A stretch of 64,000 nt of DNA from an uncultured Bacteroidales bacterium (GTDB taxonomy: Bacteria; Bacillota_I; Bacilli_A; RFN20; CAG-826). The position numbers were made by a program, and so were the translations under genes. Below the pieces are notes generated by a model. It was not told the DNA's origin, ran no database searches, and worked only from the letters and a program-made list of their open reading frames with translations. This document shows positions 3,284-50,945 of this stretch, one piece after another. Each line of letters starts with the position of its first letter. The stretch's first letter is position 1. Where the stretch lies: contig CAVJMG010000001.1 of assembly GCA_963650805.1 (NCBI GenBank), forward strand, positions 334,554 to 398,553, written 5' to 3'.

Positions 3284-5047
3284 TTAATTTCCTGTTACGC
3301 CATTGCCCTCCCCTTCAGTTTTGGGCTCATTTGCAGACGGCGTCACATACCCTAACGTTTTCTTAAGTTCGGCCGCCATAAGTTCTTTCCTTTTCTCAAA
3401 GAACGTATCGAAATCCTTCAGTTCGGCAGAGACTCCATCCGGCATAAATTTGACCGTGTTGCCCCCTTTTATCCAATCAGCCAGCGTCGAATCGTTCTTT
3501 GATTCGTTAACCTGCCCCTGAAGCAGTTCGAGATTGGGAAGCTTGTTTCTCATCCATCTCCACCTCTCAATCGTTTCTTTGGAGAAACCCTTTCCTTTAA
3601 TGTTCTTATTTTCAAACCCAGCATATGGATGAACGTGGTCTTGGTGGAATACGGCCGCATCGACTTGAATTTCGGGATATAAAAGAGTCAGCAGCATGAA
3701 GGTGTAAGATCCCTTGTCATAATCAAAACATTTGCTGATGACGTCATCGGTTATCGCGAAGTTCAAATCGCCTGTAAGCCTTACGTCCTTGAAAAGTTCA
3801 ACGGAGAAGTTCTCTTTCTTGAAGTTTTGGATGTTCTGAACCGCTTTCCTCGTTTCGCCAATCGCCGTATTGCTTGCGACGCCGAAAATGTTCTTGATCT
3901 GAGCAATGATGAAATACTTCTTGAATTCAGCGATGTTCTTAGCGCTTAAGGAGCCACCTCTATACAAATAATAGGCAATGGGCATCAACGCATTGTAGGA
4001 CGTGATTGATTCATCGCTGAAACCGCATTTGACAAGGAAAGCCACCACGTCTAGTAATGCCGTCTTTATCCTTTCCCAGTTTTCGGACACTTTTAGGATA
4101 TTTGATTTCTTAAAAGATCCGATTTTCAAATTGATGGGCGCGTCCGTCAACGCAAGGCAAGCTCTCATGACAAAGTCGGTGTTAAAATCAAACTTGCCCC
4201 TTCTTCCGTTCATGGAGTTGATGAGATTTTCGATTTCCTCTCTCCCCCCTTGCCAATACGAAACGATTGTCGAAAACAGCAAGTCCGTCTTTGATAATGG
4301 GGTTCCAGAGGAATTCAATCTAACGAAAATGTTCAGAACGTCATCATAATCTGCTTCCTCAATCTCATAGAAGCTTAGTGCGCCTTCTTCCTTGTTTGTC
4401 AAAATCTTGTATAAAGATAGGATGTTCTTCCCAGCCCTACCATCCTCGTAGTTTTTGGCTGCGTAGGTGAAGATCGAATACTCATCGTCAAATCTGAATA
4501 TATCCTTAACCTTAAACCATTTCTTCGGGTTCTCGCCATATTCATCCGACGTCAAAAACTTGAATCTTTTCGTCTCGTCATCGTCAAGAATCTTGGCAGT
4601 CGGATCAATTGTGAGATTCATGTAGAGTTCTTTTTTAGGGAAGGAGCCGTCAAGGCCCCACCAGCAACGCGGGAGTTTGCGTGCAAGGCTTCCTTTGATG
4701 GCGATGTATAACGAAGACAATCTTTGTTGGCCATCCAAAACAATGTAATAGGATTCAAAGTCGGTGGTAATCGGCAAAGGAGCCTTTTTGTTGTCCTTAT
4801 TGTCTCTCTCGTGATAGTCACGAATAAACTCATAGAGGTTCAAAGCGGTATCATCGCTATTCAGCACCTTTTTTGAGGTTTTCCAAAACAGCAATGCGCC
4901 GACTGGGTAGCCCAAAATCAAAGAATCGAAGAGGTTCTCTACCTGCTCCTCTTTCCAGACGAACTTTCTTTGGATTTCCGGAAGATACATCCTTCCGGCT
5001 TCGATGTAATTAACCGCTTCTTTGATTGATAGTTTCTGATAGCCCAT
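3284..5047 (-). CDS. GmrSD-family DUF262 (ParB-like, DGQQR) + DUF1524 (His-Me/HNH-like) nuclease; putative type IV, modification-dependent restriction enzyme
   Basis: N-terminal LPEIQRKFVW and DGQQRLSSL motifs (DUF262). C-terminal FHQDHVHPYAGF motif (DUF1524). 587 aa. Confidence 0.85.
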   Translation of the reverse strand: MGYQKLSIKEAVNYIEAGRMYLPEIQRKFVWKEEQVENLFDSLILGYPVGALLFWKTSKKVLNSDDTALNLYEFIRDYHERDNKDNKKAPLPITTDFESYYIVLDGQQRLSSLYIAIKGSLARKLPRCWWGLDGSFPKKELYMNLTIDPTAKILDDDETKRFKFLTSDEYGENPKKWFKVKDIFRFDDEYSIFTYAAKNYEDGRAGKNILSLYKILTNKEEGALSFYEIEEADYDDVLNIFVRLNSSGTPLSKTDLLFSTIVSYWQGGREEIENLINSMNGRRGKFDFNTDFVMRACLALTDAPINLKIGSFKKSNILKVSENWERIKTALLDVVAFLVKCGFSDESITSYNALMPIAYYLYRGGSLSAKNIAEFKKYFIIAQIKNIFGVASNTAIGETRKAVQNIQNFKKENFSVELFKDVRLTGDLNFAITDDVISKCFDYDKGSYTFMLLTLLYPEIQVDAAVFHQDHVHPYAGFENKNIKGKGFSKETIERWRWMRNKLPNLELLQGQVNESKNDSTLADWIKGGNTVKFMPDGVSAELKDFDTFFEKRKELMAAELKKTLGYVTPSANEPKTEGEGNGVTGN

Positions 5048-5217
5048 ACGAAGCCTCCCGCGCGACGTCGAAACGCCCCTTTCGGCAGCCGAACGATTCC
5101 TTGTTAATTATATGTTAGAAGTGGGTGGCGAAGCGAAAATGCGCCAAATTCGCCCCCCATTCAGCAAAAAACTCGATGATTAGAGAATTTATATCGACCA
5201 CGGTTTCCTGCATTATT

Positions 5218-5913
5218 TCAATTAGAATGGCTTTCCGAAGACATCAGTATTTCTTTCCATTTTTTCAAGGTGGAATGGTTAATTACCATTTTAAAAGTAA
5301 TATCTTTCTCACCATCTCTGTCCTCAAATAGAAACTTGTAATAATTTCCTCCCCTTATGATTGAATAACGGGCGTGAGCTATAGAATTTCTGACATGCCT
5401 CAAAAGAGCCGTTAATGCGTTCTTTCTATCGCTGGAGCACACTCTGCAAACAAATCTTTTGCAAGATGAATTAATATCGGTACCATTCAAGGAAAATTTT
5501 CCTAAATCGTCATCCGTAATCTTGCCCGACACGAACGAAAACGTTTTATCTTTGCGAAAGCCTATCTTAAGCATTTCTTCTAAAAGCCTTGTGCTCGTTT
5601 CTAAATCGATTGGAAACGACAAGTCTGAGGACGTGTTGGGAGAAAGATATTCGTAAAATATGATGAGATCATGTACCGCCGAATCGTTAGATAACAAATA
5701 CGTTCTAATTGCGCTTTTCGAATTATCGAATTTTTCGCAACGCTTCTTACAGTTTGAGCATTTTTTCATATTTGGAGAAGAGCCTCGGAGAGGCTTGTGA
5801 ACGGAGCCGATAGAGTTCCGCGTCAGCAAACCCATTATAGTGTCGGCCCACCCCCACGTTACAAGTCCCTCTAGCTTCCCCGAGCAAAGTTTGTCATCGT
5901 CGTAGGTTGCCAA
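5218..5913 (-). CDS. Hypothetical Cys-rich (CxxC…CxxC) protein with a C-terminal Rx4H HEPN-like motif
   Basis: Contains CSNCKKRC and CRVCSS pairs. The C-terminal RHVRNSIAHARY is shared with 2573..3238. It is the first gene of the minus-strand triad. Confidence 0.45.
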   Translation of the reverse strand: MATYDDDKLCSGKLEGLVTWGWADTIMGLLTRNSIGSVHKPLRGSSPNMKKCSNCKKRCEKFDNSKSAIRTYLLSNDSAVHDLIIFYEYLSPNTSSDLSFPIDLETSTRLLEEMLKIGFRKDKTFSFVSGKITDDDLGKFSLNGTDINSSCKRFVCRVCSSDRKNALTALLRHVRNSIAHARYSIIRGGNYYKFLFEDRDGEKDITFKMVINHSTLKKWKEILMSSESHSN

Positions 5914-6950: not shown

Positions 6951-8290
6951 TCAATCATGCTTTTGTAGCCCAGTGATTCCTTGATTCTCTTTTCTATGAA
7001 CCGGGCCAGATATTCTTCCAGATAGGGGATGAACCCCTTGACCGTCATCGCCGATTGGCCTTCGTTGCAGAACATCTCGTTTTTGATTGTTCCGGAGAAC
7101 CCCCTCGCAGGCCGAATTGTCCGGCGAGCGGCCCTTCTTGGACATGGAGCGCACGAACCCGAATTCCCTCATCAGGCCTATCCAGCCGGGCCATCGGTAA
7201 TGGCATCCGCGATCGGAATAAACGATGCAGCGGGTCCCCATGAGGACTATGCCATGCACCTTGCGAAGCATGTCGTTCGCCAACTTGGCGTTCGGAGACG
7301 CCCCTATCGTCCACGCGATCGGCATTCCGTCGAAGCGGCCTATCGCGGGCGATAGGTAAACCTTGCCGTCGCCGAGGGCGAACTCGGTTATGTCCGCGGT
7401 CATCTTCTCAAAGGGCCTTTCCGCCGCGGAATCCCTTTGCAAAAGGTTCGGCGCCTCCGGGGAAAGCTCCCCTAGATACGATGAGCATTTCGCCCTCTTC
7501 TTCTCTTCGGAGAAAGCCCCAGCTCCTTCACGAGCCTTCTGACGACCTTTTCCGACAGCCGCCCGAATTCCTCCAGAAGGCATTGCCTCAGCCCCCGTAT
7601 CCGTAGACACCGCGGTTTTCCAGGAATTCCTGGCCGAGCCTCTCTTTGAGGCGGGCGTGTTCGTCCGGCTTCGATTTGGCTTTCTCCGCATAGAAATAAG
7701 GGCTTTTGCCCAAGGCCAGGGCCGAAAGCAGCCTGCGCAGCGGATATTTGCCTCTGAGGCATCAGCCATCGCTGCCTTTTCCTTTGCCTTCAATGGCTTT
7801 TGGCTGATGCGCGGGTCTTTTTAGGACTTTTATAGTCTCCGTGAGGATGCCGATCTGCATTTGCATCTCGTCCAGCCTTTTGGATATGTCGTCGCTTGGC
7901 GGTTCCGCCTTCTTCGAGGCTTTTGGCTTTTTGCTTCCCGTGAGCAGCCCTATTATACCCCCGGCCAGGTATTGCCTTTTCCACTTGCATATGGTTGCCC
8001 GCTGTGGCCGGTCGAGATCGCCACGTCCATCACCGGCTCATGACCGGCGGCCGCCCTTTCGACTGCCACGAGCTTTTGCTCCGGAGCCGGGCGGCCAGCT
8101 TCCGGAAAGACGCCGGAGCGCCCTTTTCTGGCGCGTTCCCTGCCTTCTTTTTGAGCCAAGTGTAGAACGTCGCCCTCGTGCAAATGGGGATTTCCCTAGC
8201 GCCTTGGCGATGCTGCGGCATTTGCGGTAATACTTCAAAGCTTGAGTTTTCTGCTTTTCGTCGACCATAAACCTCCTCTCGGTTGATGGT
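6951..8290 (-). mobile_element. IS3-family insertion-sequence remnant (degraded orfA/orfB with several frame breaks)
   Basis: Fragments read …ATFYTWLKKK… (orfA-like) and …YSDRGCHYRWPGWIGLMREFGFVRSMSKKGRSPDNSACEGV… (orfB DDE core). By eye this region is about 60% GC against about 45% in the flanks. Confidence 0.6.
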
Positions 8291-8330: not shown

Positions 8331-9419
8331 TCATCTCGTTTTTAAAAGGATTTCAAATTTTACAAATTGTTTTTTCTTTAAGACTCGTTCTACTTCTTCG
8401 CTAATTTCGCTGCAGTAATTCTTAAAATATCTTTCTCTTAGATCGGACTCTAAAACAAAAATAGCTTTCCTTATACTCTTAGAGAGCTTACTTGTTCTCC
8501 AATAATTAGTTACACATTGCTGAAGGAAATACTCGTAAGCCCGCTGATCATAGGGCACGTCAAACAAAGGGAACTCTTTGAGGCACAACTCTGTGATATA
8601 AAAACTATCAATGCTTTTCAGATTACCTGTGCTTGTGACTGTAATGCCCTTTGGATTAAGTCGATAACCGTATACAACGTTCGATATACATTTATATTTG
8701 TAGCCTTTCGAGTACAAAATAAATGAAATCGGGGTATCTTCGAACCAGTAACCTTCCGGAAACTGAAAATGTTCGAGTGTTTCCGCCTTAAAAAGTTTGC
8801 CCCATGGATAGCCAGAAAGGCTCTTCGCCTCCAAGGCGTTAGACCGTTTATAGCCCCCCCAAGTCAGCTCAGTATCGCAATACCAGCCGCCTTGAACTAT
8901 GTCCATTGACTCATCGGCAGCCTTGGCGGCATTCATTAAGACATCTATTGCGTTTTCCGTAAGCACATCGTCAGAATCTAAGAACGTAACATACCTTCCT
9001 TTTATAGTTTTCATTGCAGCATTTCTCGCAGCAGAAAGCCCTTTATTACGTTGACAAATAATTTCAATTTTATTGGGGTATTTTCCCCATAAGAACGGAT
9101 AATTTCTAAAGTATTATCGGTTGACCCATCGTTAACAGCAATAATCAAATAAGAGTATTTTGTTTTTTTGATTTACAGCAGACTCCAAACACTGGCCAAT
9201 ATATTTGCCAACATTATAGGCCGGAATAATAATTACAAGGTCGTATTGTATAGAAAGAGCATTTTGACCAACGCAAGTTGTGGAGGGATCTTTATGAGCC
9301 GATAATAAAATGGTTTTAGCTTTTTTGGCAGTCATCCTTGTACACCAGTTAAAAAAGGGCAGCCATTTCCTTATCAAAGATTTTAAAAGCTTTTTCATAT
9401 AGTTTGCTCCTTCAACCAA
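8331..9419 (-). pseudogene. GT2 glycosyltransferase interrupted by a +1 frameshift in an A7/T7 homopolymer (9163-9169)
   Basis: The N-terminal piece is …IIIPAYNVGKYIGQCLESAVNQ. The shifted frame continues …KYSYLIIAVNDGSTDNTLEIIRSY… and then MKTIKGRYVTFLDSDD…. One fewer A would restore a canonical GT2 protein. Confidence 0.7.
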
Positions 9420-11098: not shown

Positions 11099-11815
11099 TC
11101 AAGACCCCTTCAGTGCTTTTCTCATGGTGACTTTAATCCAAACCCAGAATACTTTAAAAGGGTTTTTAATGTGCTTAGTTCTCAGGAAAATTTCGCCGTC
11201 TCTAGTTAAATTCCATCCGTAATTATACCAATGAATTGTTACCGTCTCTTTCTTATTTACCGGCAAATTGTTGACATGAGAATAATCATATGGAGAAAAA
11301 ACGTTTTTCTCGGCGATCAAAGTGTTCTTCAATAGTTCGGGATTATTATCTCTAACAAAGTTGAAAATATACGGATTGACGTATAATTCAGATTCCATTA
11401 TTTCATTATCGTAGTAGTTCAATAATCTTTGTATCAGTTTTGAATGTTTTTCTGCACCAATAACGCCAGTGCATATAAATTGTTTCTCTTCATATCCCAT
11501 GAAGTTTTCATATCCCAAGAACTTATCAAACTTTTGTAATATTTCTACATCCGTATCTAAATAAATGCCGCCTTCATTATATAAGATATATAGCCTTAAA
11601 TAGTCAGAGGCAAATGCCCATAATTTATATTTAAGACATTTATCAAGGAATTCGTTTCCTTTCCTCAGCTCTTCCAAATCGAGATTATCTTCATTCCACT
11701 CAACAATTTCATAATCGTCGCCCAAAACGTTGTACCACGAATTAATACAAATTTCAGAAAGTTTAGATTTACCTCCCTTACCTAACCATATGTAATGGAT
11801 TTTCTTGTCTATCAT
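11099..11815 (-). CDS. DXD-motif glycosyltransferase (GT32 / Gly_transf_sug-like capsular sugar transferase)
   Basis: N-terminal KIHYIWLG signature and a DTD motif. 238 aa. Confidence 0.65.
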   Translation of the reverse strand: MIDKKIHYIWLGKGGKSKLSEICINSWYNVLGDDYEIVEWNEDNLDLEELRKGNEFLDKCLKYKLWAFASDYLRLYILYNEGGIYLDTDVEILQKFDKFLGYENFMGYEEKQFICTGVIGAEKHSKLIQRLLNYYDNEIMESELYVNPYIFNFVRDNNPELLKNTLIAEKNVFSPYDYSHVNNLPVNKKETVTIHWYNYGWNLTRDGEIFLRTKHIKNPFKVFWVWIKVTMRKALKGS

Positions 11816-11940
11816 CAGTTGTTCTCCGAGAAATCAAACGCGCTCATCCGGCTTATAAGCCATATTTTTATTCAAATGGCCTCGCAATAAAAGACACATT
11901 CGTTAAATGTCGACGAACAGCAAGACGGCCGTTGCGAAGT

Positions 11941-13245
11941 TTAGCTGACGGCTCGATGCTTATAGTAGACAAAGGATGAGGCGAGCAAGAAATAAACAAC
12001 ATAGCCAAGTTCCATTCTTAAAGTCGAATTGTAGATGGCAAAAACTATCAGAAGCAGACAATAGACTTGTCCAAAAGCCCCGTAGCCATCATTATCTCCA
12101 AATTTCCTTTTAGCGCGGGAGATCCAAATAAAGATTGAAATGAAAACCGCAAGATAAGCCGCAACGCCTAAGAACCCGCACTCCAAAAAGAATTTTTGGA
12201 AAGAAAACCAAGAATAATGATAGGAACTGAACGCCAAAGAAAAAGGACTCGTGAATATGGGATAAGCAGAAATTTCGCAAGCCCCGAAGCCATAGCCAAA
12301 TAGATTTAAAACCCAATCGCCGTGAAACCATATGTCGTTAATATCGGAAACGGCGCCAAACCTCGATATTTCATAACCGCCACCGACGGCAAAACCAACA
12401 TTAAAATAATCAGATAGATTGGCCATTTGAGATGCCCACTCCGGAAAAACGATGCTAAAAACGGCATAAGAAACGGCCAAGCCCACAATGCTAATAAATA
12501 TTAAGGCGACTGACTTCGTGGATTTCTTAGAAAAGATAACGCATAAAATAATGGCCAAAGCAAACTCTGCATAAAATGCTTTCAGCTCGGCTAAAGCGCT
12601 TAGCAACAAACAGCTGAGCAATGTAAGCGCCATCTTTGAGAAAGACATTTTGGAACGTAAATAAAGGCAAACAGCAGCCACCGTTAGATAGCAAAAATAC
12701 GCATTCGTATAAGCGTTGCAGCCCGTTGTGACACCAAAGATACCGCCAAGATTGTCCTGCTTATAGCCGAACACAAAGTATTGAATCAAAGAAACTAATA
12801 CATTCAAAATTTGAAGTCTAAACAAAAACTTTGCAACGCGCTCGACAGAGTTAATCGACAAATATAAAACGCAAGCAAGGAAGAAAGGGAAAAACCGCAT
12901 TTCGTTTCTGAAGGCCCAAACAACAAGAAGTGGATTAACCAAATGGATTATCGAAGTGGCGAAGCACGCCAAATTTAAGCACACCAAAGCATAAAAGACA
13001 CCGGTAAGCCGAAGCTTATAAATCTTTTTGTTGCGAGACGCATCAAAGAGAATCTCGATTAAGACGAAAAGGTTGATAACGTCTATCAGATAGCTAAGCG
13101 TTGTCGGCAAAGAGAACAAAGCGCATACTCCATTATAAAGAAGCGCGAACCAAAGCTGAAAAAGAATGACCTTTTCCAAGTCAATCCGCTTTGTGGAATG
13201 CGTTCTGCAATGTCCCATATTGTGCGCAACAACAGCGTCCATCAA
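11941..13245 (-). CDS. wzy: Polytopic membrane protein; putative Wzy-type repeat-unit polymerase
   Basis: 434 aa with at least ten predicted hydrophobic helices. It lies between GT genes in a Wzx/Wzy-type locus. Confidence 0.5.
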   Translation of the reverse strand: MMDAVVAHNMGHCRTHSTKRIDLEKVILFQLWFALLYNGVCALFSLPTTLSYLIDVINLFVLIEILFDASRNKKIYKLRLTGVFYALVCLNLACFATSIIHLVNPLLVVWAFRNEMRFFPFFLACVLYLSINSVERVAKFLFRLQILNVLVSLIQYFVFGYKQDNLGGIFGVTTGCNAYTNAYFCYLTVAAVCLYLRSKMSFSKMALTLLSCLLLSALAELKAFYAEFALAIILCVIFSKKSTKSVALIFISIVGLAVSYAVFSIVFPEWASQMANLSDYFNVGFAVGGGYEISRFGAVSDINDIWFHGDWVLNLFGYGFGACEISAYPIFTSPFSLAFSSYHYSWFSFQKFFLECGFLGVAAYLAVFISIFIWISRAKRKFGDNDGYGAFGQVYCLLLIVFAIYNSTLRMELGYVVYFLLASSFVYYKHRAVS

Positions 13246-13359
13246 TCTCCCTCAAATTCAGCGAGGATACTATAAACCTCGTTTTAAGTTCTAACAACAA
13301 GGGTTCCGACCTCCGGAAACTTCGTCTAGGCCCCTCCCGAAGTCGACATAAGAGTGTCC

Positions 13360-14415
13360 TTATTTCAAAACTTTCTTAATACAACGCTTCAACCTCAGCA
13401 GAAAAACGGCAAACCAATTAAGTCTGTGTCTTATGGCGAAAACCAAAACTCGTTTGTATGGTTCGCTTCCATTGAACGCTAAGCGTTTGGCTATTTCTTG
13501 AAAACGCTCATCGCTAATTATTTCTTTGAGTTTTTTCGTCTTTTCTTTTCTGCTAAATTTCGAGCAATTTAGAATTAAATCAAACGCGCCTTGTATATTG
13601 CCAAAATACTGTAAGCCCAAGTTTTTCTTTACCAAATCGTTGTAGCCAAATTCTTCTGCCAGTTTTATTGATTCAAAATACTGATAGGTGCATTTTTCGA
13701 ACCTATCATCTCGATACGTTGAGGTCAAAGAGGCCACGTTGTTCTTTCTATAAAAATATAAATTATCCGGAATAGAAAGAACGCTTTTCGCATATTTGAA
13801 TAGGAACAGGTTGGAATAGTAATCCTCAGATATAAAGACTCTTTCAGAAACAAACCGGAACTTTGATGAGCGAATGAGCTCCATCGAAATAATTTTTGTG
13901 CATGCCGACCCATCGAGCCCCTTGTCCGTTCCACCAAGATAGACCACCTCCGGCAAGGTTGTATTTTGTACCGCGTCGCCCAAATATTCAGTGTGCTTAT
14001 TAGACAATTTAGCTTCGGCGATCTGTTTCTCATCAACGAAGGTTGTTATCCCATAAGCAAAGATGTCATATTTTTTCGTTGATAAATACTTGGCCGCAAC
14101 TTCAAACAAGCGAGGATCCAACACGTCATCTCCATCAATAAAGGCAATATAATCCCCAGTCGCATTTTCGATCCCTGTGTTTCTAGCCATCCCTAGTCCG
14201 GCATTGACTTTATGTACAGCCTTAATTCGGGCATCGTCCGCCGCGAAAGCGTCGCATATTTTCCCAGAATCATCCTTAGACCCATCATCGACCAGAATAA
14301 TCTCAAGGTTTTTGTAGGTTTGATTAATGATTGATTTGACACATTTGCCAACGAATTTCTCGATGTTGTAGACGGGGACCACAACGGTGAAACATATATC
14401 TTCATTTGGTTCCAT
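13360..14415 (-). CDS. GT2 family glycosyltransferase
   Basis: FTVVVPVYNIEKFVGKCVKSIINQTYKNLEIILVDDGSKDDS … AFIDGDD. Confidence 0.8.
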   Translation of the reverse strand: MEPNEDICFTVVVPVYNIEKFVGKCVKSIINQTYKNLEIILVDDGSKDDSGKICDAFAADDARIKAVHKVNAGLGMARNTGIENATGDYIAFIDGDDVLDPRLFEVAAKYLSTKKYDIFAYGITTFVDEKQIAEAKLSNKHTEYLGDAVQNTTLPEVVYLGGTDKGLDGSACTKIISMELIRSSKFRFVSERVFISEDYYSNLFLFKYAKSVLSIPDNLYFYRKNNVASLTSTYRDDRFEKCTYQYFESIKLAEEFGYNDLVKKNLGLQYFGNIQGAFDLILNCSKFSRKEKTKKLKEIISDERFQEIAKRLAFNGSEPYKRVLVFAIRHRLNWFAVFLLRLKRCIKKVLK

Positions 14416-14505
14416 TGATTTTGCCTTTCATTGTTGAAGTCATTAGTATCGTCACATGACCGCCCGTTTCGGGGCGATTTAGTTTGTGCCAATATATGGA
14501 TGCGG

Positions 14506-15093
14506 TCATTTACCCGATGGGCTTTTCTCCCAAGGTATCGAATCCAAGAATTTATTCATATCTTTATATTTCTTTGTGCGCTGTTGAAATTTCAATAGAG
14601 TTGCATCTTCTCTTACAAGTTTATTCATCTCTTTATATTGGGGGATTAGCCCATCGCTAGAATCAGTAAATAGCCAAAAGAATTCACGCAAGTCCTCAGG
14701 TTTTGGATTTTGATTGAACCTTGCTCTGTAGCATTTAACCAATTCAATTGCTTCAGCCTCATAGGCATTTAGCCTTTTTTGATAATATTCATCCAAAGTG
14801 CATATCAATTTCGCGGGATTACCCGCTATAACGGAATTATCTGGAAACGATTTATTAACGAGGGAATTGGCACCAACAATACAGTTATTGCCAATGTGCA
14901 CTCCTTTTAATATCGTGGCGTTCATACCTATGAAAACATTATTGCCAATAACCACTTCGCCCGAGGACCCAATGACATCACCATGAACTCCTCGAAGGAC
15001 GGCCCAATCGTAACCACGAGTTAGACTAGAGATCCCCTCAATTTCGCACCCATGTTTTCCTAAAAGCTGAACACTGCACCTATAACCGTACAA
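14506..15093 (-). CDS. Left-handed β-helix (hexapeptide-repeat) O-acetyltransferase
   Basis: VIGNNVFIGMNATILKGVHIGNNCIVGANSLV…AGNPAK. Confidence 0.7.
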   Translation of the reverse strand: MYGYRCSVQLLGKHGCEIEGISSLTRGYDWAVLRGVHGDVIGSSGEVVIGNNVFIGMNATILKGVHIGNNCIVGANSLVNKSFPDNSVIAGNPAKLICTLDEYYQKRLNAYEAEAIELVKCYRARFNQNPKPEDLREFFWLFTDSSDGLIPQYKEMNKLVREDATLLKFQQRTKKYKDMNKFLDSIPWEKSPSGK

Positions 15094-15145
15094 CAGCTTT
15101 TATCGCATCTTTTGAAATAATTTCATAACAGACATAAACGTAACC

Positions 15146-15634
15146 TCATTTAGAACTGTATTCTTCTATTGAACAAATCTGGTGAGCAGGATTTCCAGCG
15201 TAAACCATACCATCCGGAATGTCTTTTGTAACAACGCTCCCCGCGCCGACAATACAGTTTGATCCAATGCTGATTCCACAAAGGATAGTGACTCTTTGGC
15301 CAATGAAGGTGTTGTCCCCAATTTTGGTGGGAGCTATTTTCACCTCAGTTTGCCCGGTCTTCAGATTATGTAATTTGTAACTGAGGGCTGCGTCGTGCGT
15401 CAAGATTATTGTGTACTGAGCAATAACGACATTTCGACCAATATAAATAGGAGCGCTCGTATCCAAGTGAGCCCGATAAGATATGTAATTGACCCCCCCG
15501 CTAAAGACAACCCCGTATTTCTTATAAATCCGAACGAGATGCTTATTGTAGGCTTTCCGACCGAAGATCATGAAATACTGAAGCGTCGAAAGACGCATTT
15601 TCTTCAAAACTTGTCCGAATTTCCCCATAACCAT
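15146..15634 (-). CDS. Hexapeptide-repeat O-acetyltransferase (WcaF/WbbJ-like)
   Basis: IGDNTFIGQRVTILCGISIGSNCIVGAGSVVTKDIP…AGNPA. Confidence 0.7.
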   Translation of the reverse strand: MVMGKFGQVLKKMRLSTLQYFMIFGRKAYNKHLVRIYKKYGVVFSGGVNYISYRAHLDTSAPIYIGRNVVIAQYTIILTHDAALSYKLHNLKTGQTEVKIAPTKIGDNTFIGQRVTILCGISIGSNCIVGAGSVVTKDIPDGMVYAGNPAHQICSIEEYSSK

Positions 15635-15641
15635 TTGGTGC

Positions 15642-16167
15642 TCATTCTATAAAGCCGATACCGTTGCCCATTTCGTCAATGAATTCCGAAACGCAATCTT
15701 CATTCAATTGAAACGGCCTTTTCCCGTTGAGATCCAAGTGTGGCGCGTTTTCAAATTTTTGGCCACATCTATTTTTAAATTCATCAACTGTACATAAGAA
15801 CCTAGCCGGAACACCCCCCCCAAACTTCTCCTTGCGGTACATCCTTATTAACAAGCGAGCACGCGCCAATTATGGAATTTGTTCCAATGTGAACGCCAGG
15901 CATAACAACGCTTTTGGTCCCAACAAACGCATTATCGTTAATCACAGTTTTGGACACTTTGGTGTAATTCAATAGTTTCTTAGTGCTCCCATCATGAGCC
16001 AATATGTAAACATCTTTCGCTAGTGTCACATTATTCCCAATAGTTATCAATTCAGGAAAAACCGCATCGATGTTAGCTCCTTTCTCTATGTGGAAATTGG
16101 TTCCAAGCGTTAAGCCTCGCTTTTTTAATCTCCACAAATACAGCTTTCGATAGATTTGATACAGCAT
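15642..16167 (-). pseudogene. Hexapeptide-repeat O-acetyltransferase split by a frameshift in a G8/C8 homopolymer (15814-15821); candidate phase-variable gene
   Basis: The upstream piece ends …DVPQGEVWGG|CSG*. The other frame continues GGVPARFLCTVDEF…. Nine G residues would give an uninterrupted WbbJ-like protein. Confidence 0.65.
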
Positions 16168-16180
16168 AAAAGCCTCCTAA

Positions 16181-17263
16181 TCAAATTACATTAAAATACA
16201 AGTCAACGAGCTTTCTAACGTGCGCATCAAGAGAGAATCTCCCTTTTGCCAGTGAATAACTACTCTCGGACATTTTTTTGTAGATTGATGCGTCCGTCAA
16301 TATTTTAACAATCGCGGATGATGCGCCTCGCACATCCCCCGGGTCAAAAGTATATCCGTTAAAGTCATTAATCACAATTTTAGGTATACCGCCTACGTTT
16401 GTAGAAACAATCGGAAGCGCATATCCCATTGCGTCTAAAATAGACATTGGCATACCTTCGTTATACGAGGGTAAGATGAATAAATCTGCATTCATTAACG
16501 CCTCGTCCTTTTCCTCTCCTCTTATCCAACCTGGCATACTTACGGATTCGGAAACGCCTAAGTCGGCGCACAGGCCTTTAAATTTAACCTCATCTTTGGG
16601 GGTTCCTTTTCCGGCGATTATAAACTTAGATGCCGGGATGGTTTTTTTTACCGAAGCCACGATAGCCGGAATATCATAGCAGCCTTTCCTTTCCCCAATT
16701 TCCCCCAAGAACAAAACGGTGTTATTTTTGTTAGAGTCGCGCTTTACTCCTTCCTTAACCACGCAATAGTTTTGAAGGACAACCACCTTATTCGATTCAA
16801 CGATTCTTGATAGTTTGTCTTTCCATTCATCGGATAGCGCAATCAAGAGGTCGCATTTGTTGTAGGTTATCTTAATTTGCCTCTTTTTATTTTTATCGGC
16901 GTTCACGTAAAAACTTTCGAAATCGGCGCCATGAATATGATTAATGATTTTAATCTTGAAAAAGTGCGCTACATCAATAAAGAACTTTTTACGGTAAAAC
17001 GAAGGTCCGAAAGATGAGTGGATGTGCACAATCTGAGGCCTGAAAAAAATAAGAACGAAGACGAATCTAATATAAGCGCACAAAGCTTTTAGGAGTTTTC
17101 TCAGCTTGTTTCCATTTACATAAGATTCAATGTATTTGATTTGGACACGCTCATTAAGGTATTTGTTATCCCTATACCCATTAGTAACGGAAGCTATCCC
17201 TCCCTGGACGTTTCTATTTGGAACAATCATGCAAACTTTCATTTTCATATCACCCGAAAACAA
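16181..17263 (-). CDS. GT4 (group 1) glycosyltransferase
   Basis: C-terminal EGMPMSILDAMGYALPIVSTNVGGIPKIV motif. Confidence 0.75.
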   Translation of the reverse strand: MFSGDMKMKVCMIVPNRNVQGGIASVTNGYRDNKYLNERVQIKYIESYVNGNKLRKLLKALCAYIRFVFVLIFFRPQIVHIHSSFGPSFYRKKFFIDVAHFFKIKIINHIHGADFESFYVNADKNKKRQIKITYNKCDLLIALSDEWKDKLSRIVESNKVVVLQNYCVVKEGVKRDSNKNNTVLFLGEIGERKGCYDIPAIVASVKKTIPASKFIIAGKGTPKDEVKFKGLCADLGVSESVSMPGWIRGEEKDEALMNADLFILPSYNEGMPMSILDAMGYALPIVSTNVGGIPKIVINDFNGYTFDPGDVRGASSAIVKILTDASIYKKMSESSYSLAKGRFSLDAHVRKLVDLYFNVI

Positions 17264-17265
17264 AC

Positions 17266-18078
17266 TTAATTAAGGTTGTTCTCCTTGTATTTAAGTTTAT
17301 TCTTCTTAGTCACGCCAGTTAGACCATCGCAAAGAGAATACCAAACGTATTTGAATCCCCCGACAATGTATCTATTGAACAGACGCTTTGGCTCTTTGAA
17401 AAAACGGTACAGCCACTCCAAGCTCAATTTCTCTATCCATTTAGGGGCTTTCTTCAAATTGCCAGAAAAGAAATCAAAAGCCGCTCCAACGCCAAGGAGG
17501 ACTCCTGAGTCGATGCTATTTTCATGGGCGTCGATCCATCTCTCTTGCTTAGGCGCACCTATGCCCACCCAAATAAAATCAGGTTTAAGCGCGTTGATCT
17601 CTTTGACGATGTCTGCATCTTCTTTCTCAGTTAAAGGCCTAAAGGGAGGACAATAGGAGCCCACTATTTTCAAATTAGGATGTTTTTTTAGAATTTCAGA
17701 TTTGAGTGTAGACAAGACTTCCTCATTCTTGCCCCCATAGAAATAATGCGTTTTCCCGCTTCTCTCTGATTCTGAAAAAACAAAATCCATAAAATCCGGA
17801 GCCGAGCATCTCTCATTAGTTTTACCGCATTTGCGTACCTTTTTCACGATGGGCATACCGTCAATAACATTAAAAGACGAGTTCCCGTAAATGGCTTTCA
17901 AATCTTCGTGCTCTCTGCAGGCGATCGCGGCGGGAACGCCAACTAAATAAACGCTGTAAAAATTGGATTGTGAATCCAAAGACATCAAGGTGGTGACAAG
18001 TTCTTTTTTGGTGAACGCGGACACCTCAACGGAATTCAAAACGTAGTAGTTTTTGGAATGCTTGTATTCGGATTTCAT
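17266..18078 (-). CDS. WecB/TagA/CpsF-family (GT26) glycosyltransferase
   Basis: …IWVGIGAPKQERWI… signature. 270 aa. Confidence 0.75.
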   Translation of the reverse strand: MKSEYKHSKNYYVLNSVEVSAFTKKELVTTLMSLDSQSNFYSVYLVGVPAAIACREHEDLKAIYGNSSFNVIDGMPIVKKVRKCGKTNERCSAPDFMDFVFSESERSGKTHYFYGGKNEEVLSTLKSEILKKHPNLKIVGSYCPPFRPLTEKEDADIVKEINALKPDFIWVGIGAPKQERWIDAHENSIDSGVLLGVGAAFDFFSGNLKKAPKWIEKLSLEWLYRFFKEPKRLFNRYIVGGFKYVWYSLCDGLTGVTKKNKLKYKENNLN

Positions 18079-18086
18079 GCAACGTT

Positions 18087-19019
18087 TTATTTTTCTACTT
18101 CGTTCAAATAATAACGAATCGTGTTCCGCAAGCCTTCATCGAAAGTGGTTTCAGCCTCGAAGCCAAATTTTTCTTTGGCTTTCGAAACATCCAACACCCG
18201 TCTTTGCTGACCACCCAATCCGTTGTTGATATATACGAATTCACCTTGATAATCCATGATATCGCCAATCATTTTGGCGAGCTCACGAATAGTGATCTCA
18301 TTGCCGCTGCCGACATTGACCGGTTCAATCTCATTATAGTATTCAGCGGCCAAAACAACGGCTTTCGCCGCGTCAGCGACATAAACGAATTCCCTTGACT
18401 CGTAACCGGTCCCCCAAACCTCAACAGTTGGAAGACCCTTCATTTTGGCGTTGTAAACCTTCTTGATTAACGCCGGAATAACATGCGAATGCGCATCGTC
18501 AAATTTGTCTTTAGGCCCATAGAGATTAACGGGGAGCAAATGAATGGATTTATAACCGTATTGCTTTTTATAGGCAATTTGCTGTGCTAAAAGCATGCGT
18601 TTCGTCAAACCATAGGCATCGTTGGTGGGAACGGGATACCCGTCCCACAAAGTGTCTTCTTTGAATGGGCATGGCGTAATCGCGGGATATTCGCAAACGC
18701 TACCTACGGCAACAAACTTCTTTACCCCGTTTAAATAGGAGTGCTTAAGCATATATATATTGATTAAGGCATTCCTATCAAATTGATCGGCAGGATGAGT
18801 GGCGCTATACCCAATGCCGCCAATATCGGCCGCGGCGTGGATAACCATATCTACGTTTTTGTGGTCACAAAAAAGCCTCTTCGCGCCTTCCTCTGTGCTC
18901 AAATCGTAATCTTTGCTCCTAGGGACAATTACCTCATTATGATCCTTTAAAAGCGAAACGACATGAGATCCGAGGAAGCCTGCGCCGCCAGTAACTATTA
19001 TTTTTTTGTTTTCAATCAT
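18087..19019 (-). CDS. fcl: GDP-L-fucose synthase (GDP-4-keto-6-deoxymannose 3,5-epimerase/4-reductase)
   Basis: KIIVTGGAGFLGSHV Rossmann motif. …NLYGPKDKFDDAHSHVIPALIKK…EVWGTGYESREFVYVAD… matches Fcl. It sits directly downstream of gmd. Confidence 0.85.
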   Translation of the reverse strand: MIENKKIIVTGGAGFLGSHVVSLLKDHNEVIVPRSKDYDLSTEEGAKRLFCDHKNVDMVIHAAADIGGIGYSATHPADQFDRNALINIYMLKHSYLNGVKKFVAVGSVCEYPAITPCPFKEDTLWDGYPVPTNDAYGLTKRMLLAQQIAYKKQYGYKSIHLLPVNLYGPKDKFDDAHSHVIPALIKKVYNAKMKGLPTVEVWGTGYESREFVYVADAAKAVVLAAEYYNEIEPVNVGSGNEITIRELAKMIGDIMDYQGEFVYINNGLGGQQRRVLDVSKAKEKFGFEAETTFDEGLRNTIRYYLNEVEK

Positions 19020-19021
19020 TG

Positions 19022-20113
19022 TTATTCCCCCAAAGCCTTATCGAGTTTCTCGACGTTCATATGCAGTTTCTCAATCTTGGTTTTCATCAAATCTGCTTCC
19101 GCCATCATCTTGCAGAGTTCCTCATAAGAAGTCTTTTGGGGATTCCAATGAAGCACGCTCTTGGCTTTGCTAGGATCTCCCCAAAGGTTAACGACGTCGG
19201 TAGGACGATAGAACTTCTCATTCACGCAGACAAGCATTTTGCCCGTTGCCTTATCGTAGCCCTTCTCTTCGATGCCATTGCCTTTCCATTCAAGTTCAAT
19301 ACCAACGTAATGGAAAGCGAGGGCGCAGAATTCCCGAACCGTATGTTGGACACCGGTTGCAATCACGAAATCATCGGGCTGCTCTTGCTGAAGGATAAGC
19401 CACATGCATTCGACGTAGTCCTTGGCAAATCCCCAGTCTCTCAATGAATCTAGATTCCCGAGTTCTAGATGGTCCTGCAAGCCCATTTTGATTCTGCCTG
19501 CGGCAATGGTGATTTTACGGGTAACGAAATTCTCTCCGCGCCTAGGGGATTCGTGATTGAACAAAATCCCATTCGCGGCGAATATGCCGTAAGCGTCCCT
19601 ATATTCCCTGCACATCCAGAAGCCGTATTGTTTGGCAACCGCGTAAGGGGAATAAGGATGAAACGGCGTTTTCTCGTTCTGCGGGCATTCCTCTACTTTG
19701 CCATAAAGTTCAGAGGTGGAAGCTTGATAGAATTTCGTCTTCTTTTCCAAATGGAGAATATGAATAGCCTCTAGAATCCTAAGGACACCTAAGGCATCCA
19801 CATCTCCGGTGTATTCAGGGGCATCGAAGGAAGTGCCTACATGAGATTGGGCGGCGAGGTTATAAATCTCATCCGGTTGAATCTTGCCAATAAGATTGAT
19901 TAGGCTCGAGGAATCCGAAAGGTCGCCATCGTGGAGGGTTATGAGCTTCTTCTCCAAAAGATGATCGATCCTCCCCGTGTTGGATATGGAGGATCTGCGG
20001 ACAAGCCCGTGGACCTCATACCCTTTCTCAAGCAGGAACTCGGCCAAATAAGAGCCGTCCTGCCCCGTGATTCCCGTAATTAACGCTACTTTGTTCATAA
20101 ACACCTCATTCAA
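19022..20113 (-). CDS. gmd: GDP-mannose 4,6-dehydratase
   Basis: [35 protein letters not shown]… is near-canonical for Gmd. Confidence 0.9.
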
Positions 20114-20175
20114 ATCATTCTAATTATAAATGCAAACCCTATTGATGGTTTAATTTCCCAAACTTAAGGGAAACC

Positions 20176-21492
20176 TCACCATTCCAGATCATACTTCTTC
20201 TTATCCTTCTCATCGATGTCTTTACCGATCTGCACCTCGATGATTTTCAAATCCTCGAGGGCCTCAATCGCATGCTTGCAACCGGTTTTGATGGTGACGA
20301 CATCGCCCCCATGGACAACGCGACGATCTCCATCAATAACAACGTTTCCTGTTCCGGAGACGACGTTCCAAACCTCATCTCTTCGCTCATGGGAATGGTA
20401 ATGCATCTTATTCCCCTTATTCATCGTTATCTTGACCGTCAGGGAATTCGGTCCAACGTCGATGACTTCATATTTGCCCCAGGATTTCTCCGCGAAGCGA
20501 ATCGTATCGTCGAATCCTTCAACATAAGGCTTGATGAACGAGGATTGCTCAGGGCTCGTTACCAGTATTCCTTCCGGGGAGGAGGCGACGATAACGTTCT
20601 TTAAGCCCATGCACAAGACGGGAATATCCAAGGAATTGATGACCTTAACGTTCTCGCATTTTTCGTTTAGGGCAACGTTGCCTATCGCGTTCTCCGTCAT
20701 CGCCTCGGTTAAGGTGTTCCAAGTCCCTAGGTCTTTCCATAAGCCATTGAACCTCATGACTTGGATGCTAGTTTCGTGTTCTGCAACCGCATAATCGAAG
20801 CTGGTTTTAAGGACGTTTGGATACTTATTGAGCAAATCCTTGTAATCGATGAAATCAATAAGCTCATGGGCCCGCTTAAGGACATAGCCGATTTTATAGG
20901 CGAATATCCCCGCGTTCCAAAGAGCTCCTTCTTTAATATATTCCGCGGCTTTCTCTTCAGTTGGCTTCTCTTTGAACGAAGACACCGGACTAACCTTGCC
21001 CTTCGTTTTCGGCACGATATAGCCATACTTCGCGCTTGGGTAAGTCGGTTCCATCCCCATCAACGTGAGATTGGCTTTGCCTTCGCTAGCCAGCTCATAT
21101 AGTTTCTTCAACGATTCGAAATAGTCATCCTCTACATAGGGATCCACTGGGCAAACGACAACGGCTTCGTCCTCGGATACGCCCATTTGATCGTGGAGAT
21201 AAGACGTAGCTAAAGTGATAGCGGCGAAAGTATCCCTTCTAGTGGGTTCGACGGAAATGTTGATGTCCTCTCCCAATTGATGGATGAGCTCCGAAACCTG
21301 CGATTTGCTTGTGGCAATCGTGATCTTCGCGCCTTTATCGATTTTTTCGATGGATCGATAGACTCTTTGAACCATGGATTCGTAGTTCCCGTTCTCGTCT
21401 TTGAAAATGCTGATGAACTGCTTTGACCTAACGTCGTTAGATAACGGCCAAAGCCTTTTTCCCGATCCTCCTGATAGCAAGATGATATTCAT
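20176..21492 (-). CDS. manC: Mannose-1-phosphate guanylyltransferase / mannose-6-phosphate isomerase (bifunctional ManC type)
   Basis: MNIILLSGGSGKRLWPLSNDVRSKQF… with a C-terminal cupin. Confidence 0.85.
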   Translation of the reverse strand: MNIILLSGGSGKRLWPLSNDVRSKQFISIFKDENGNYESMVQRVYRSIEKIDKGAKITIATSKSQVSELIHQLGEDINISVEPTRRDTFAAITLATSYLHDQMGVSEDEAVVVCPVDPYVEDDYFESLKKLYELASEGKANLTLMGMEPTYPSAKYGYIVPKTKGKVSPVSSFKEKPTEEKAAEYIKEGALWNAGIFAYKIGYVLKRAHELIDFIDYKDLLNKYPNVLKTSFDYAVAEHETSIQVMRFNGLWKDLGTWNTLTEAMTENAIGNVALNEKCENVKVINSLDIPVLCMGLKNVIVASSPEGILVTSPEQSSFIKPYVEGFDDTIRFAEKSWGKYEVIDVGPNSLTVKITMNKGNKMHYHSHERRDEVWNVVSGTGNVVIDGDRRVVHGGDVVTIKTGCKHAIEALEDLKIIEVQIGKDIDEKDKKKYDLEW

Positions 21493-21510
21493 ATAACGTC
21501 CTCGTATTCC

Positions 21511-22425
21511 TTATTCGCCACTATGATCGGTAAGCACAAACCATAGCCCTTTGAATATGATCTTCAAATCAAGGGCCGCGCTTCTGGTCTTGATGTATTG
21601 GATGTCCAAATCAACCCATTGGTTAAACGATAAGGAGTTCCTATTCGGGGTGATTTGCCATAAGCAAAGCAACCCACCTTTAACGTCTAAGCGGTGTTTC
21701 TGATATTCGTTATACTGATTGGTCTCTATAGGCAATGGAGGCCTAGGGCCCACTACACTTAGTCTACCGACGAAGATATCCCAGATTTGAGGCAACTCAT
21801 CAAGAGAGGTCTTGCGTAAGAATGACCCCACCTTGGTGATCCTAGGATCCTCTTTGAGTTTGAATGCCGGGGCATCCGCCTCATTGATCCCGTATTCTAG
21901 GAGTTTAGCCTTCATGGCCTCCGCCCCAGGACACATGGATCTAATCTTGTGGAACTTAAACAGTTTCCCTTTCTTGCCGACGCGGATGGACGTGTATAAC
22001 GCCCCCTTAACCGTGGGGTCTATCTCTCCGTTAGGATCCTTAGACACCCTGCAGTCATAACGTTTTCCATCCTTGGAGAGATATCTACCCTCGGGGTTCT
22101 CGATGATGTCGAGCTTATAGGCTCTGCCCCCATAATCCTCCAGGAGCTTAATGAGCATCAGAAGCAATATAAACCAGCCAAACAGCAACAACACCGTTCC
22201 GGAGGAAACAATGTCGAAGGCCCTCTTGATGAACTCGTAGAACTTGCCCCCATTGACAACGATGTCGTTAGAGGCGTCGTTCTCACCGCGGACAACCCTA
22301 GGCCCGTTAATCGCGGCTTCGCCTAGAGGCGATTCTAAGTTGCCGCTCTCTACTTCAGGCTCATTCATGCTCTTGGTATCCTCTAGGCAACCTATGAACA
22401 AAAGAAAATGAATCGTCGTTGCCAT
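21511..22425 (-). CDS. Initiating phosphoglycosyl (bacterial sugar) transferase, small WbaP/PglC-like
   Basis: …KFHKIRSM…DPRITKVGSFLRKTSLDELPQIWDIFVGRLSVVGPRPP…. First gene of the minus-strand operon. Confidence 0.8.
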   Translation of the reverse strand: MATTIHFLLFIGCLEDTKSMNEPEVESGNLESPLGEAAINGPRVVRGENDASNDIVVNGGKFYEFIKRAFDIVSSGTVLLLFGWFILLLMLIKLLEDYGGRAYKLDIIENPEGRYLSKDGKRYDCRVSKDPNGEIDPTVKGALYTSIRVGKKGKLFKFHKIRSMCPGAEAMKAKLLEYGINEADAPAFKLKEDPRITKVGSFLRKTSLDELPQIWDIFVGRLSVVGPRPPLPIETNQYNEYQKHRLDVKGGLLCLWQITPNRNSLSFNQWVDLDIQYIKTRSAALDLKIIFKGLWFVLTDHSGE

Positions 22426-23037: not shown

Positions 23038-24111
23038 TTAAAGCCAATGCCTTTCGCTTGTTTCTATTCTGCATAGCAGCTTTTGAATAGCCATCTTGTC
23101 GATGAACTTGTAGATGAAACCGAACCCATAACCGATGATGATGGCGGCGAAAAAAGAAATGAGCCAAAACGCATAATGGTTCTCTATTTTTAGGCATTCA
23201 AAAAGCAAAATCATGGGGAAGCGTTGGAGGATATACACCCCAAAGGAGATAGAACTAAGGAATTTGAATATCCGTGAGCCGAATTTCAAATAATAAGTGA
23301 GACCAAATATCGCCCCGCAAAGGGAAAGAGCTCTAATCTCAAACGTTATTAAGTAGGGGATTTCCGGTACAAAACGAGAGAGAATATAAGAAGCAAAAAA
23401 CGTTGTGCTGCACGCCCCCAATAGTAAACCATAGAACAGGCCTTGCCGTCTCAAGCCCGATATTTTAGGCAGCGCATAGCCTACTCACAAACCCAGAGGG
23501 AAACAAAGAATGGTGTCATACCACCACGCGCCGTACCCCAATAGTTTGAATGCAATTACGTATCCAAAGACCGATAAGCTGGTGATTAAAATTGGCCATG
23601 CTTTGTTCTTGAAGGGAACGAGGAGGGCCAAACCCGAAGAAAGATAACAAAACAAAATGGCGAAAATAAACCAATTAGAATTTCCTATAGACGCCAAACC
23701 GATTGGAGCCAAAAGGTAGTCCGCCCATGAGTAGACGCCGTTGACTAAGGCCAAAACACAATACGGGATCAAGGAAACAAAGACGTAAAGGAATACTTTG
23801 AAGAAGTGCTTTATTAAAATAGTTTTTTCGTACGAGCGCCCTTTTTTCAGAACCGACGAAGCGATGCCGTATCCAGAGAAAAAGAAGAAGGGCGCCACCA
23901 TAAGCTGACCTATGCAGGCTAAAATGGCATTTAAATATTTGGAGCCGAAATCATCAAAGGCGATATAACTTGAGATATGGCTAAAGAGGATGAAAATGAC
24001 GCAAAGCCCTCTGATTGCGTCACAAGAGTTTTTTGTTAAGGTTTCTTCCCCTTTATTCAAACGGACAGACAGCGCGAACAGTAGGCACAAAATCACAAAA
24101 AGAAATATCAT
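23038..24111 (-). pseudogene. Acyltransferase-3 (OatA-like) membrane O-acyltransferase interrupted by an in-frame TGA (23485-23487)
   Basis: N-terminal …CDAIRGLCVIFILFSH… (acyl_transf_3 signature). The same frame continues after a single TGA codon into the 138-aa piece. Confidence 0.6.
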
Positions 24112-38402: not shown

Positions 38403-38607
38403 GAATGCGCAACTGGCAAGGTTAATAAATAGGTTGCGCAATGGTTTTCCATATAGTTGCGCAAGGAAACCTTCGAACGTTCTCCAACCGTTTTTCCCGT
38501 ATTCGTCTTTCTTATTTACCGGTAATTTGAATGAAATTTTGTGCTGATTAGACAGTTTCTTTGAATTGGCAAATAATTCAGATTCCATCGCTATTTTTAG
38601 AATGAGA

Positions 38608-38674
38608 TTCCCTAAGTTGGCGCATTTCAATTCCCTAAGTTGGCGCATTTTAATTCCCTAAGTTGGCGTTTTTA
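38608..38674. repeat. Three tandem direct repeats of about 23 bp (ttccctaagttggcgcatttcaa)
   Basis: Read directly. They lie just upstream of the HTH-ugd start region. Confidence 0.85.
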
Positions 38675-50663: not shown

Positions 50664-50945
50664 ATAATCCGCGTTGCACTCCTCAACGAATAATGGTGTT
50701 TCACAAAACCCAAAACATCAATATAATCGTGCCACTATCGTGCCACTTTTTAGCGGCACGATTGGTGGCACATTCATTTTGCGGATTGGCCAATAACGTC
50801 GTTAGACGGATATTCTCCGCCAATTTCGAAAAAGCGCATTTGGTTTGCGTCCATTTCAGCCAACCCGAAAACGTTCGTTGCTCAAGGCAGTCTTAAACAA
50901 AACGGCGTTTCACCCAGATTCGGCACAACATAACGGATTGCCCTG

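Follow-up and report, generated by a model that had tools for sequence, protein, structure and literature searches.

RESULTS

The Reading Frame of AT1 Depends on the Length of a Poly-G Tract

An acetyltransferase gene interrupted at a homopolymer inside a polysaccharide operon raises the question of whether the gene is broken, miscalled, or switched off. We addressed this question for AT1, the gene at 15642..16167 of the window (the whole 64-kb stretch of DNA that was analyzed). On the comparisons described below, we consider it probable that AT1 is a contingency gene in which slipped-strand mispairing would phase-vary the acetylation of a glycan and that it stands in the OFF state in this genome.

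The plus strand carries a run of exactly 8 C at 15814-15821, which places G8 on the coding minus strand, within the ORF of AT1; this is the longest G/C homopolymer of the window (Table 1). AT1 starts downstream of an AGGAGG and, as sequenced, is read from 15802..16167 (-) as a protein of 121 aa that ends in ...PQGEVWGGCSG*. Both the sequence and its translation thus agree with the sequence-only reading, which had the G8 tract truncating the protein at CSG*. The C-terminal frame at 15642..15813 (-), ...VPARFLCTVDEF...GFIE*, which carries on as VPARFLCTVDEFKNRCGQKFENAPHLDLNGKRPF...GIGFIE*, is left unread at 8 G. An identical 121-aa product is also encoded by a Logan contig of SRR13434624.

Translation of AT1 with tract lengths of 5-11 G gave a full protein of 174/175 aa at 7 G (WGGVPARF...) or 10 G (WGGGVPARF...) and the truncated form at 8 or 11 G. 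At 6 or 9 G the third frame was entered, and this also stops (at 9 G, WGGVFRLGSY...*). The earlier statement that 9 G restores the frame was therefore incorrect; the nearest ON states from 8 G are 7 G, by loss of one G, and 10 G, by gain of two. Gain or loss of one repeat toggles the product between full-length (174 aa) and truncated (121 aa), a property that AT1 shares with SSR phase-variable genes, as it does the position of the tract within the ORF with G on the coding strand.

By itself, the tract is statistically unremarkable. Runs of G7 or longer occurred 4 times in the window, compared with 6.9 +/- 3.2 expected from dinucleotide shuffles, so that such runs are not over-represented, and with GGG making up 30% of the Gly codons here, a G7 at W-G-G is not improbable. 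Because of this codon share, the conservation of GGG codons alone was set aside as weak proof of selection for the tract. Its significance comes from its position and from the comparison with relatives.

Table 1. Coordinates of AT1, its tandem neighbors, and other features of the window
Feature	Coordinates	Strand	Basis
AT1, LbH (hexapeptide) sugar acyltransferase (predicted), 174 aa if the tract is 7 G	15642..16167	-	Pfam, NCBIfam, structure model
Poly-G tract (G8) in AT1, codons W116-G117-G118, OFF	15814..15821	-	Sequence, translation of lengths 5-11, homologous tracts in relatives
AT2, LbH acyltransferase, 162 aa, intact	15146..15634	-	Pfam, NCBIfam; 36% identical to AT1
Poly-G tract (G7) in AT2, codes F-S-G-G-V, ON here	15493..15499	-	Sequence and relatives
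AT3, LbH acyltransferase, 5'-decayed	14506..15093	-	Pfam; comparison with relatives
Polysaccharide operon	11099..22425	-	ORFs, Pfam
Defence-like genes in the polysaccharide region	3284..5913, 40056..41381, 49635..52226, 55083..56312, 58123..59493

The Truncated AT1 Product Is Predicted to Lack Conserved Structure

With its frame repaired, AT1 matched Pfam Hexapep PF00132 (3.9e-11) and, in NCBIfam, many sugar and xenobiotic acetyltransferases at superfamily level, all far under the curated cut-offs. The description of AT1 as WbbJ-type consequently holds for the superfamily and fails for the equivalog: against the WbbJ model (NCBIfam NF007240, cut-off 243 bits), repaired AT1 scored 51.4, AT2 77.4, and AT3 76.8 bits. 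A profile of the AT1 family matched the solved LbH acyltransferases QdtC, maltose and galactoside O-acetyltransferases, and NeuO (3JQY, 7e-11). The AF2 model of AT1, built with 26 homologues, has an LbH fold (pLDDT 95.6), and Foldseek with this model recovered the same LbH enzymes, its top matches including both N- and O-acyltransferases. Its hexapeptide repeats and LbH fold place AT1 in the LbH acyltransferase superfamily. These results indicate that AT1 is, by sequence and model, a predicted LbH sugar acyltransferase, whose acetylation may be of the O or the N type.

In the AF2 model, the tract codons W116-G117-G118 sit in the last turn of the beta-helix. Residues G118, P120, and A121 are invariant across the family, and W116 is invariant in the seven closest relatives. 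According to the model, the 8 G product would be without P120-A121, strand 121-126, and helices 127-140 and 156-166. The corresponding strand and helix at the C terminus of NeuO build the interface of its trimer (PMC3046976). Because invariant residues, the last strand, and the C-terminal helices are missing and the NeuO equivalent is an interface of the trimer, the truncated AT1 is likely to be inactive.

Sister Lineages Are Out of Frame at the Same Codons but Conserve the Downstream Sequence

A search of 5.8 billion protein clusters with repaired AT1 revealed that all matches of >=70% identity end prematurely at one and the same W-G-G site. The truncated cluster representatives are P0001, which is the window's own (121 aa), P0003 (85% identity, 126 aa), P0005 (83% identity, 121 aa), and P0007 (70% identity, 129 aa); intact full-length representatives were found only at 58% identity or lower. 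A scan of genome contigs with repaired AT1 yielded only two distant LbH genes, from Gilvimarinus and from a Thermodesulfobacteriota MAG, and metagenome contigs scanned with the family alignment yielded two loci, one of them a further contig of the Ruminococcus-like species described below.

At the homologous codons, the tract reads tG8t in the window and in contig L001 (in-frame length 7), tG7a in the four lineage B contigs L002-5 (in-frame length 8), tG10t in L006 of lineage C (in-frame length 9), and tG8a in L007-8 of lineage D (in-frame length 7). All four lineages are therefore out of frame at these loci, and the correction differs in sign, an added G for lineage B and a lost G for the window and for lineages C and D. 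The downstream frame is nevertheless open to ...GFIE* or ...NYIE* in 4/4 lineages. By the NG86 method, synonymous sites between the lineages are saturated (pS 0.58-0.90), whereas over the 55 codons 3' of the tract pN was 0.22-0.37 and dN/dS, where computable, 0.13-0.38. As in SSR phase-variable genes, the sequence downstream of the tract is thus open and under purifying selection despite the OFF states. The low dN/dS next to saturated synonymous sites indicates that the AT1 C terminus was translated during most of the divergence, and the present frameshifts must therefore have arisen recently and separately, as a reversible switch would predict.

Near-identical Contigs Carry Different Tract Lengths

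We drew allele series from 90%-identity clusters and read the protein tails as tract lengths. In lineage B, the tails WGGRLLNLFVK (7 G) and WGGDAC* (9 G) were found together with the 174-aa ON alleles P0109 and P0110 (8 G), and 6 G is implied by a downstream fragment. The alleles of lineage C have 10 G or 11 G, none being ON among its 6 contigs; in lineage D, 8 G occurs beside P0119, which is ON at 179 aa. In-frame alleles include P0109, P0110, P0119, and P0123. The P0021 cluster contains ON, WGGTS*, and WGGGTS* tails. As a suggestive control at the protein level, P0066, which has a WGGVPAKY motif, may be compared: of its 17 members, 15 were listed, and 12 of these have 173 aa, the other three having 154, 68, and 164 aa. 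For P0119, P0112, P0066, and P0021, the tract lengths were inferred from protein tails only.

DNA sequence confirmed the lengths in lineages B (7 G in L002-5, 8 G in L013, 9 G in L014-17) and C (10 G in L006 and L019-22, 11 G in L018). When the flanks were compared, L003 (7 G) and L014 (9 G, 85x coverage) had 2 mismatches over the 4241 nt upstream of the tract and none over the 300 nt downstream of it, and L018 (11 G) and L021 (10 G) matched without exception over 3627 nt. Within lineages, then, contigs that are 99.9-100% identical over 3-4 kb carry 7/8/9 G or 10/11 G. A tract of polymorphic length between conserved flanks, which is characteristic of SSR loci, was found both in the sister lineages and in the Ruminococcus-like set. 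The idea that this homopolymer is a hypermutable ON/OFF switch accordingly finds support in the conserved tract, in purifying selection on the C terminus, and in length differences between near-identical contigs; compared with related strains, AT1 is variable in tract length and not uniformly broken, the sister lineages holding in-frame full-length alleles. Because the window and L001 (both 8 G, probably from the same run) are a single sample of the window's own strain, switching in that strain, with its reversibility and rate, is inferred. An acceptor sugar, and selection by phage or by host immunity, are likewise presumed.

The Tandem Neighbors of AT1 Also Bear Tracts

As the sequence-only reading had proposed, AT1 lies among three tandem hexapeptide acetyltransferases of a surface-glycan locus: AT1, AT2, and AT3 are mutually 36-38% identical, all match PF00132, and all are within the polysaccharide operon. 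AT1 had been counted as the third of them, which is correct in plus-strand coordinates, but in the direction of transcription it comes first. Besides these genes, the operon encodes an initiating phosphoglycosyl transferase, ManC, Gmd, Fcl, a WecG/TagA-family GT, a GT4, a GT2, a Wzy-like membrane protein, and a DXD glycosyltransferase, and the whole window is rich in polysaccharide genes. The nearest named matches of the operon's Gmd are Oribacterium MAGs (83%). Together with the AT1 homologue of a Ruminococcus isolate described below, they may point to an uncultured gut or rumen member of the Clostridia, a placement that is tentative because sugar-nucleotide genes move between genomes. The ATG of AT2 is located 8 nt past the in-frame stop of AT1, without an obvious Shine-Dalgarno sequence, and one may speculate that an OFF state of AT1 weakens translation of AT2 as well.

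The AT2 tract is in frame in the window. In lineage C (L018-L021 and L006) it has 8, 9, or at least 9 G, all OFF, and in lineage B (L002-5 and L013-16) the run is broken by other bases, GGGGGTG(T/G)G, and is not in frame; close relatives have only 127-aa, N-terminally shortened calls of AT2. The Logan contig L006 ends at 4141-4149, inside the AT2 tract (at least 9 G), which is the behavior of a de Bruijn assembler at a site that is heterogeneous in length or poorly covered. Relatives of AT3 carry G8 (KIGGGT, ON, 242 aa; L023/24) or G9, which is OFF (L025). The AT3 of the window is without ~35 codons present in its relatives (P0105; L023/L024), the G8 tract (KIGGGT) included, and has an in-frame TAA upstream (14506..15145). 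With tracts in relatives of AT2 and AT3 as well, each of the three tandem acetyltransferases bears one in this family; here, AT1 is OFF, AT2 is ON, and AT3 is decayed.

Several observations concern other genes of the window. The GT2 gene at 8331..9290 (-), also present in the Logan contig L026 (SRR13434624), has two compensating frameshifts at the A runs 'caaaaaaac' and 'ggggaaaatacccc', which lie ~85 nt from each other and enclose stops, and is either a pseudogene or affected by homopolymer errors; it also contains an in-frame G7 at 8854-8860, again coding W-G-G. The membrane Acyl_transf_3 gene at 23038..24111 (-) has a single in-frame TGA at 23485-23487 (...FPLGL*VGYALP...), which probably replaces a Trp codon. 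An alternative genetic code in which TGA specifies an amino acid was rejected for this site, as other long ORFs are intact under table 11. An rve (IS-type) integrase is encoded at 6951..7793, and defence-like genes (GmrSD, HEPN, Schlafen/AlbA_2, and four AAA_14+DUF4143 ATPases) are scattered through the region (Table 1). The segment 41845..48426 has a raised GC content (~52%) and a strong positive AT skew, and its large plus-strand ORFs (up to 732 aa) gave no Pfam or NCBIfam match. The UDP-glucose 6-dehydrogenase ORF at 36990..38648 (-) encodes 552 aa and exceeds the family model by ~145 residues at its N terminus; most proteins in its 90% cluster have 464 aa, so that the difference may reflect either a wrongly placed start or a genuine extension. 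The 64-kb window contains no tRNA genes.

A Pseudogene Accounts Poorly for the Comparative Data

Some of these lesions bear on a simpler explanation, namely that AT1 is a plain pseudogene, in which the additional G is a one-off loss of function in a decaying accessory locus, with no adaptive or reversible role, the tract being simply where it chanced to occur. Irreversible lesions do lie nearby, in the 5' deletion and TAA of AT3, the two frameshifts of the GT2 gene, and the in-frame TGA of the Acyl_transf_3 gene, and so does an IS-type integrase; the interrupted, out-of-frame AT2 tract of lineage B looks like decay locked in the OFF state. A one-off loss is hard to reconcile, however, with a site at which three sister lineages underwent separate shifts of differing direction, with a downstream frame that stayed open and constrained, or with ON and OFF alleles that coexist in near-identical contigs, and a single slip to 7 G restores AT1. 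We therefore regard simple decay as unlikely, although it is the strongest competitor of phase variation.

A Ruminococcus-like Relative Shows Tract-specific Length Variation

A homologue of AT1 with 51% identity is found in the isolate Ruminococcus sp. f11 (GAA6264664.1) and in many metagenomes. The protein tails in its cluster, WGGT, WGGY, WGGV, WGGGT, WGGGY, WGGGV, and WGGGGT, correspond to 7 to 13 G (24, 19, 86, 25, 3, 1, and 1 contigs, respectively), a conversion that rests on the DNA-verified flank tG9tacccgctc. In-frame alleles are the commonest in this species (87/159 contigs). Nine contigs from Ruminococcus sp. f11-like genomes (L027-L035; L030 is from GCA_042850715.1) contain two tandem LbH acetyltransferases, each with a poly-G tract, near 5755 and 6347, and neither tract is out of frame in the cultured isolate. 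Heptose-type genes (SIS, GHMP kinase, and NTP transferase) and an RtcB gene belong to the same locus.

In an alignment of seven 12.45-kb contigs of this type, substitutions fell in 18 columns and indels at three internal sites, the only other gaps being two groups that reflect ragged ends of the contigs. The only indel site that varies in more than one contig is the G tract of the upstream/adjacent acetyltransferase, with 8, 9, 10, or 12 G; 10 G, the length in the cultured isolate, is ON. L031 alone carries the remaining two indels, of 12 bp and 2 bp, and eleven A/T runs of 7-8 nt are invariant.

These data also bear on the possibility of a sequencing or assembly artefact, in which the true tract would be in frame and miscalled homopolymers would have produced both the 8 G and the length differences between public contigs. 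Such errors deserve consideration, as G tracts were found hard to size in a study of Bifidobacterium breve (PMC9187656). In our own material, L006 ends inside a G tract, the lineage B variants GGGGGTGTG and GGGGGTGGG could be errors made just after a homopolymer, the window and L001 were probably assembled from one set of reads and hence are not independent, and the ON contig L013 has only 4.4x coverage, homopolymer lengths in assemblies being open to miscalling. Against this, 9 G was found in L014-L017 under four sample accessions (ERZ15610558, ERR10753946, ERR10753944, and ERR10689730; L014 at 85x), of which fewer than four may be independent because an ENA assembly and a Logan contig may share reads, and 7 G was found in two sample pairs, so that lengths are reproducible within sample groups. 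Furthermore, A/T runs of 7-8 nt never vary, the Ruminococcus-like alleles of 7 to 10 G are each found in 19-86 contigs, which come from many projects and assemblers, and an isolate genome has both tracts in frame. Together, these observations make an artefact very improbable.

Slightly less probable still is recoding, in which RNA-polymerase slippage or ribosomal frameshifting would decode the out-of-frame tracts and tract length would tune the amount of enzyme: homopolymer runs of 8-11 nt can support transcriptional slippage, and the closest lineages are mostly out of frame yet conserve the C terminus, but the correction required is +1 nt for lineage B and -1 nt for the window and for lineages C and D, and in-frame alleles exist and predominate in the Ruminococcus-like species. 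A programmed frameshift or programmed slippage would show the same out-of-frame arrangement in all homologues, which is not the arrangement found here; recoding is thus unlikely to be the main mode, although OFF alleles may be expressed leakily.

DISCUSSION

A Model for Switching of AT1

Taken together, these results favor slipped-strand phase variation of AT1 over decay, artefact, and recoding. In this model, the poly-G tract in the conserved W-G-G(-V) codons would gain or lose G by slipped-strand mispairing at replication. With 7 or 10 G, the enzyme would be made in full, at 174 aa (ON), and with any other number translation would end a few codons on (OFF), so that expression would be stochastic, with the sequenced genome caught in the OFF state at 8 G. 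With independent tracts in AT2 and, in relatives, AT3, one population could display varied acetylation patterns on one surface glycan. Because W-G-G-V (TGG GGN GGN GTN) can become G7-G9 by synonymous changes alone, the tract recurs at this site.

A broader proposal, to which we give about even chances, is that in an LbH acetyltransferase subfamily of gut and rumen Clostridia (Ruminococcus- and Lachnospiraceae-like), Gly-Gly motifs (W-G-G-V, S-G-G-V, and I-G-G-G) have repeatedly turned into poly-G contingency tracts, with two or three tandem copies per locus switching independently to yield up to 4-8 acetylation states of a single surface glycan. This would be an undescribed SSR 'phasome', plausibly driven by phage or antibody, and, if it exists in these obligate-anaerobe commensals, it would be readable directly from metagenomes.

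For this window alone, the significance is modest, being that of one gene in the OFF state. If the switch is confirmed, it would mean clonal diversification of capsule or cell-wall glycan acetylation in abundant gut and rumen bacteria, with a bearing on phage susceptibility, antibody recognition, and strain persistence. Tract-bearing genes in MAGs are routinely annotated as pseudogenes or split ORFs, and tract lengths mined from metagenomic reads could serve as in situ reporters of selection.

Comparison with Known Systems

Homopolymer-driven phase variation of surface-glycan decoration is textbook knowledge in Campylobacter, Neisseria, and Haemophilus. In the literature, we found no description of it in Ruminococcus or other commensal Clostridia. 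Most likely, AT1 carries an ordinary ON/OFF mutational switch of a sort previously undescribed in gut or rumen Clostridia.

As enzymes, the best sequence and structure matches to the AT1 catalytic domain are the maltose/galactoside O-acetyltransferases and enzymes of WbbJ/WcaF type (for example, PDB 3SRT and 1KQA). Unlike these, AT1 has a distinctive helical C-terminal extension of 50 residues, and its NCBIfam scores are far below the cut-offs.

NeuO is the phase-variable polysialic-acid O-acetyltransferase of the Escherichia coli K1 prophage CUS-3 (PDB 3JQY; PMC3046976). It shares with AT1 the LbH acyltransferase fold (profile E 7e-11; Foldseek TM 0.52), and in it capsule acetylation is switched by slipped-strand mispairing in the coding region, as is predicted for AT1. 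The repeats are different: NeuO has a 5' heptanucleotide VNTR (AAGACTC), from which a functional N-terminal domain is translated as well, whereas AT1 has a mononucleotide run two-thirds into the gene, hidden in a conserved motif of the catalytic domain, and sequence similarity between the two is low. AT1 is consequently not of the NeuO type, which combines the 5' VNTR (poly-psi) with a prophage location; its run lies at codons 116-118, among chromosomal polysaccharide neighbors.

The poly-G contingency loci of Campylobacter jejuni, which include genes for modification of capsule, LOS, and flagellar glycan (PhasomeIt survey, PMC6321876), resemble AT1 in the switch itself. They have intragenic poly-G tracts of 7-13 nt on the coding strand of surface-glycan decoration genes, the frame sets ON or OFF, several genes per locus switch independently, and length varies between homologues; with the Ruminococcus-like relative they further share a heptose-type locus with SIS, GHMP-kinase, and NTP-transferase genes. 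C. jejuni, however, is an AT-rich epsilonproteobacterium without MutS/L, whereas the present organism has ~45% GC and is probably a Gram-positive member of the Clostridia, and tracts are not over-represented in the 64-kb window.

The G-tract switch of a B. breve pilus (PMC9187656) differs in its target, a sortase-dependent pilus, and was verified by maximum-depth sequencing, whereas the case for AT1 is one of comparative genomics only. It nevertheless offers a close parallel: in this Gram-positive gut commensal, too, an ORF is split by a G tract, the tracts (G9-G12) are conserved across the species of the clade, and populations carry mixed lengths.
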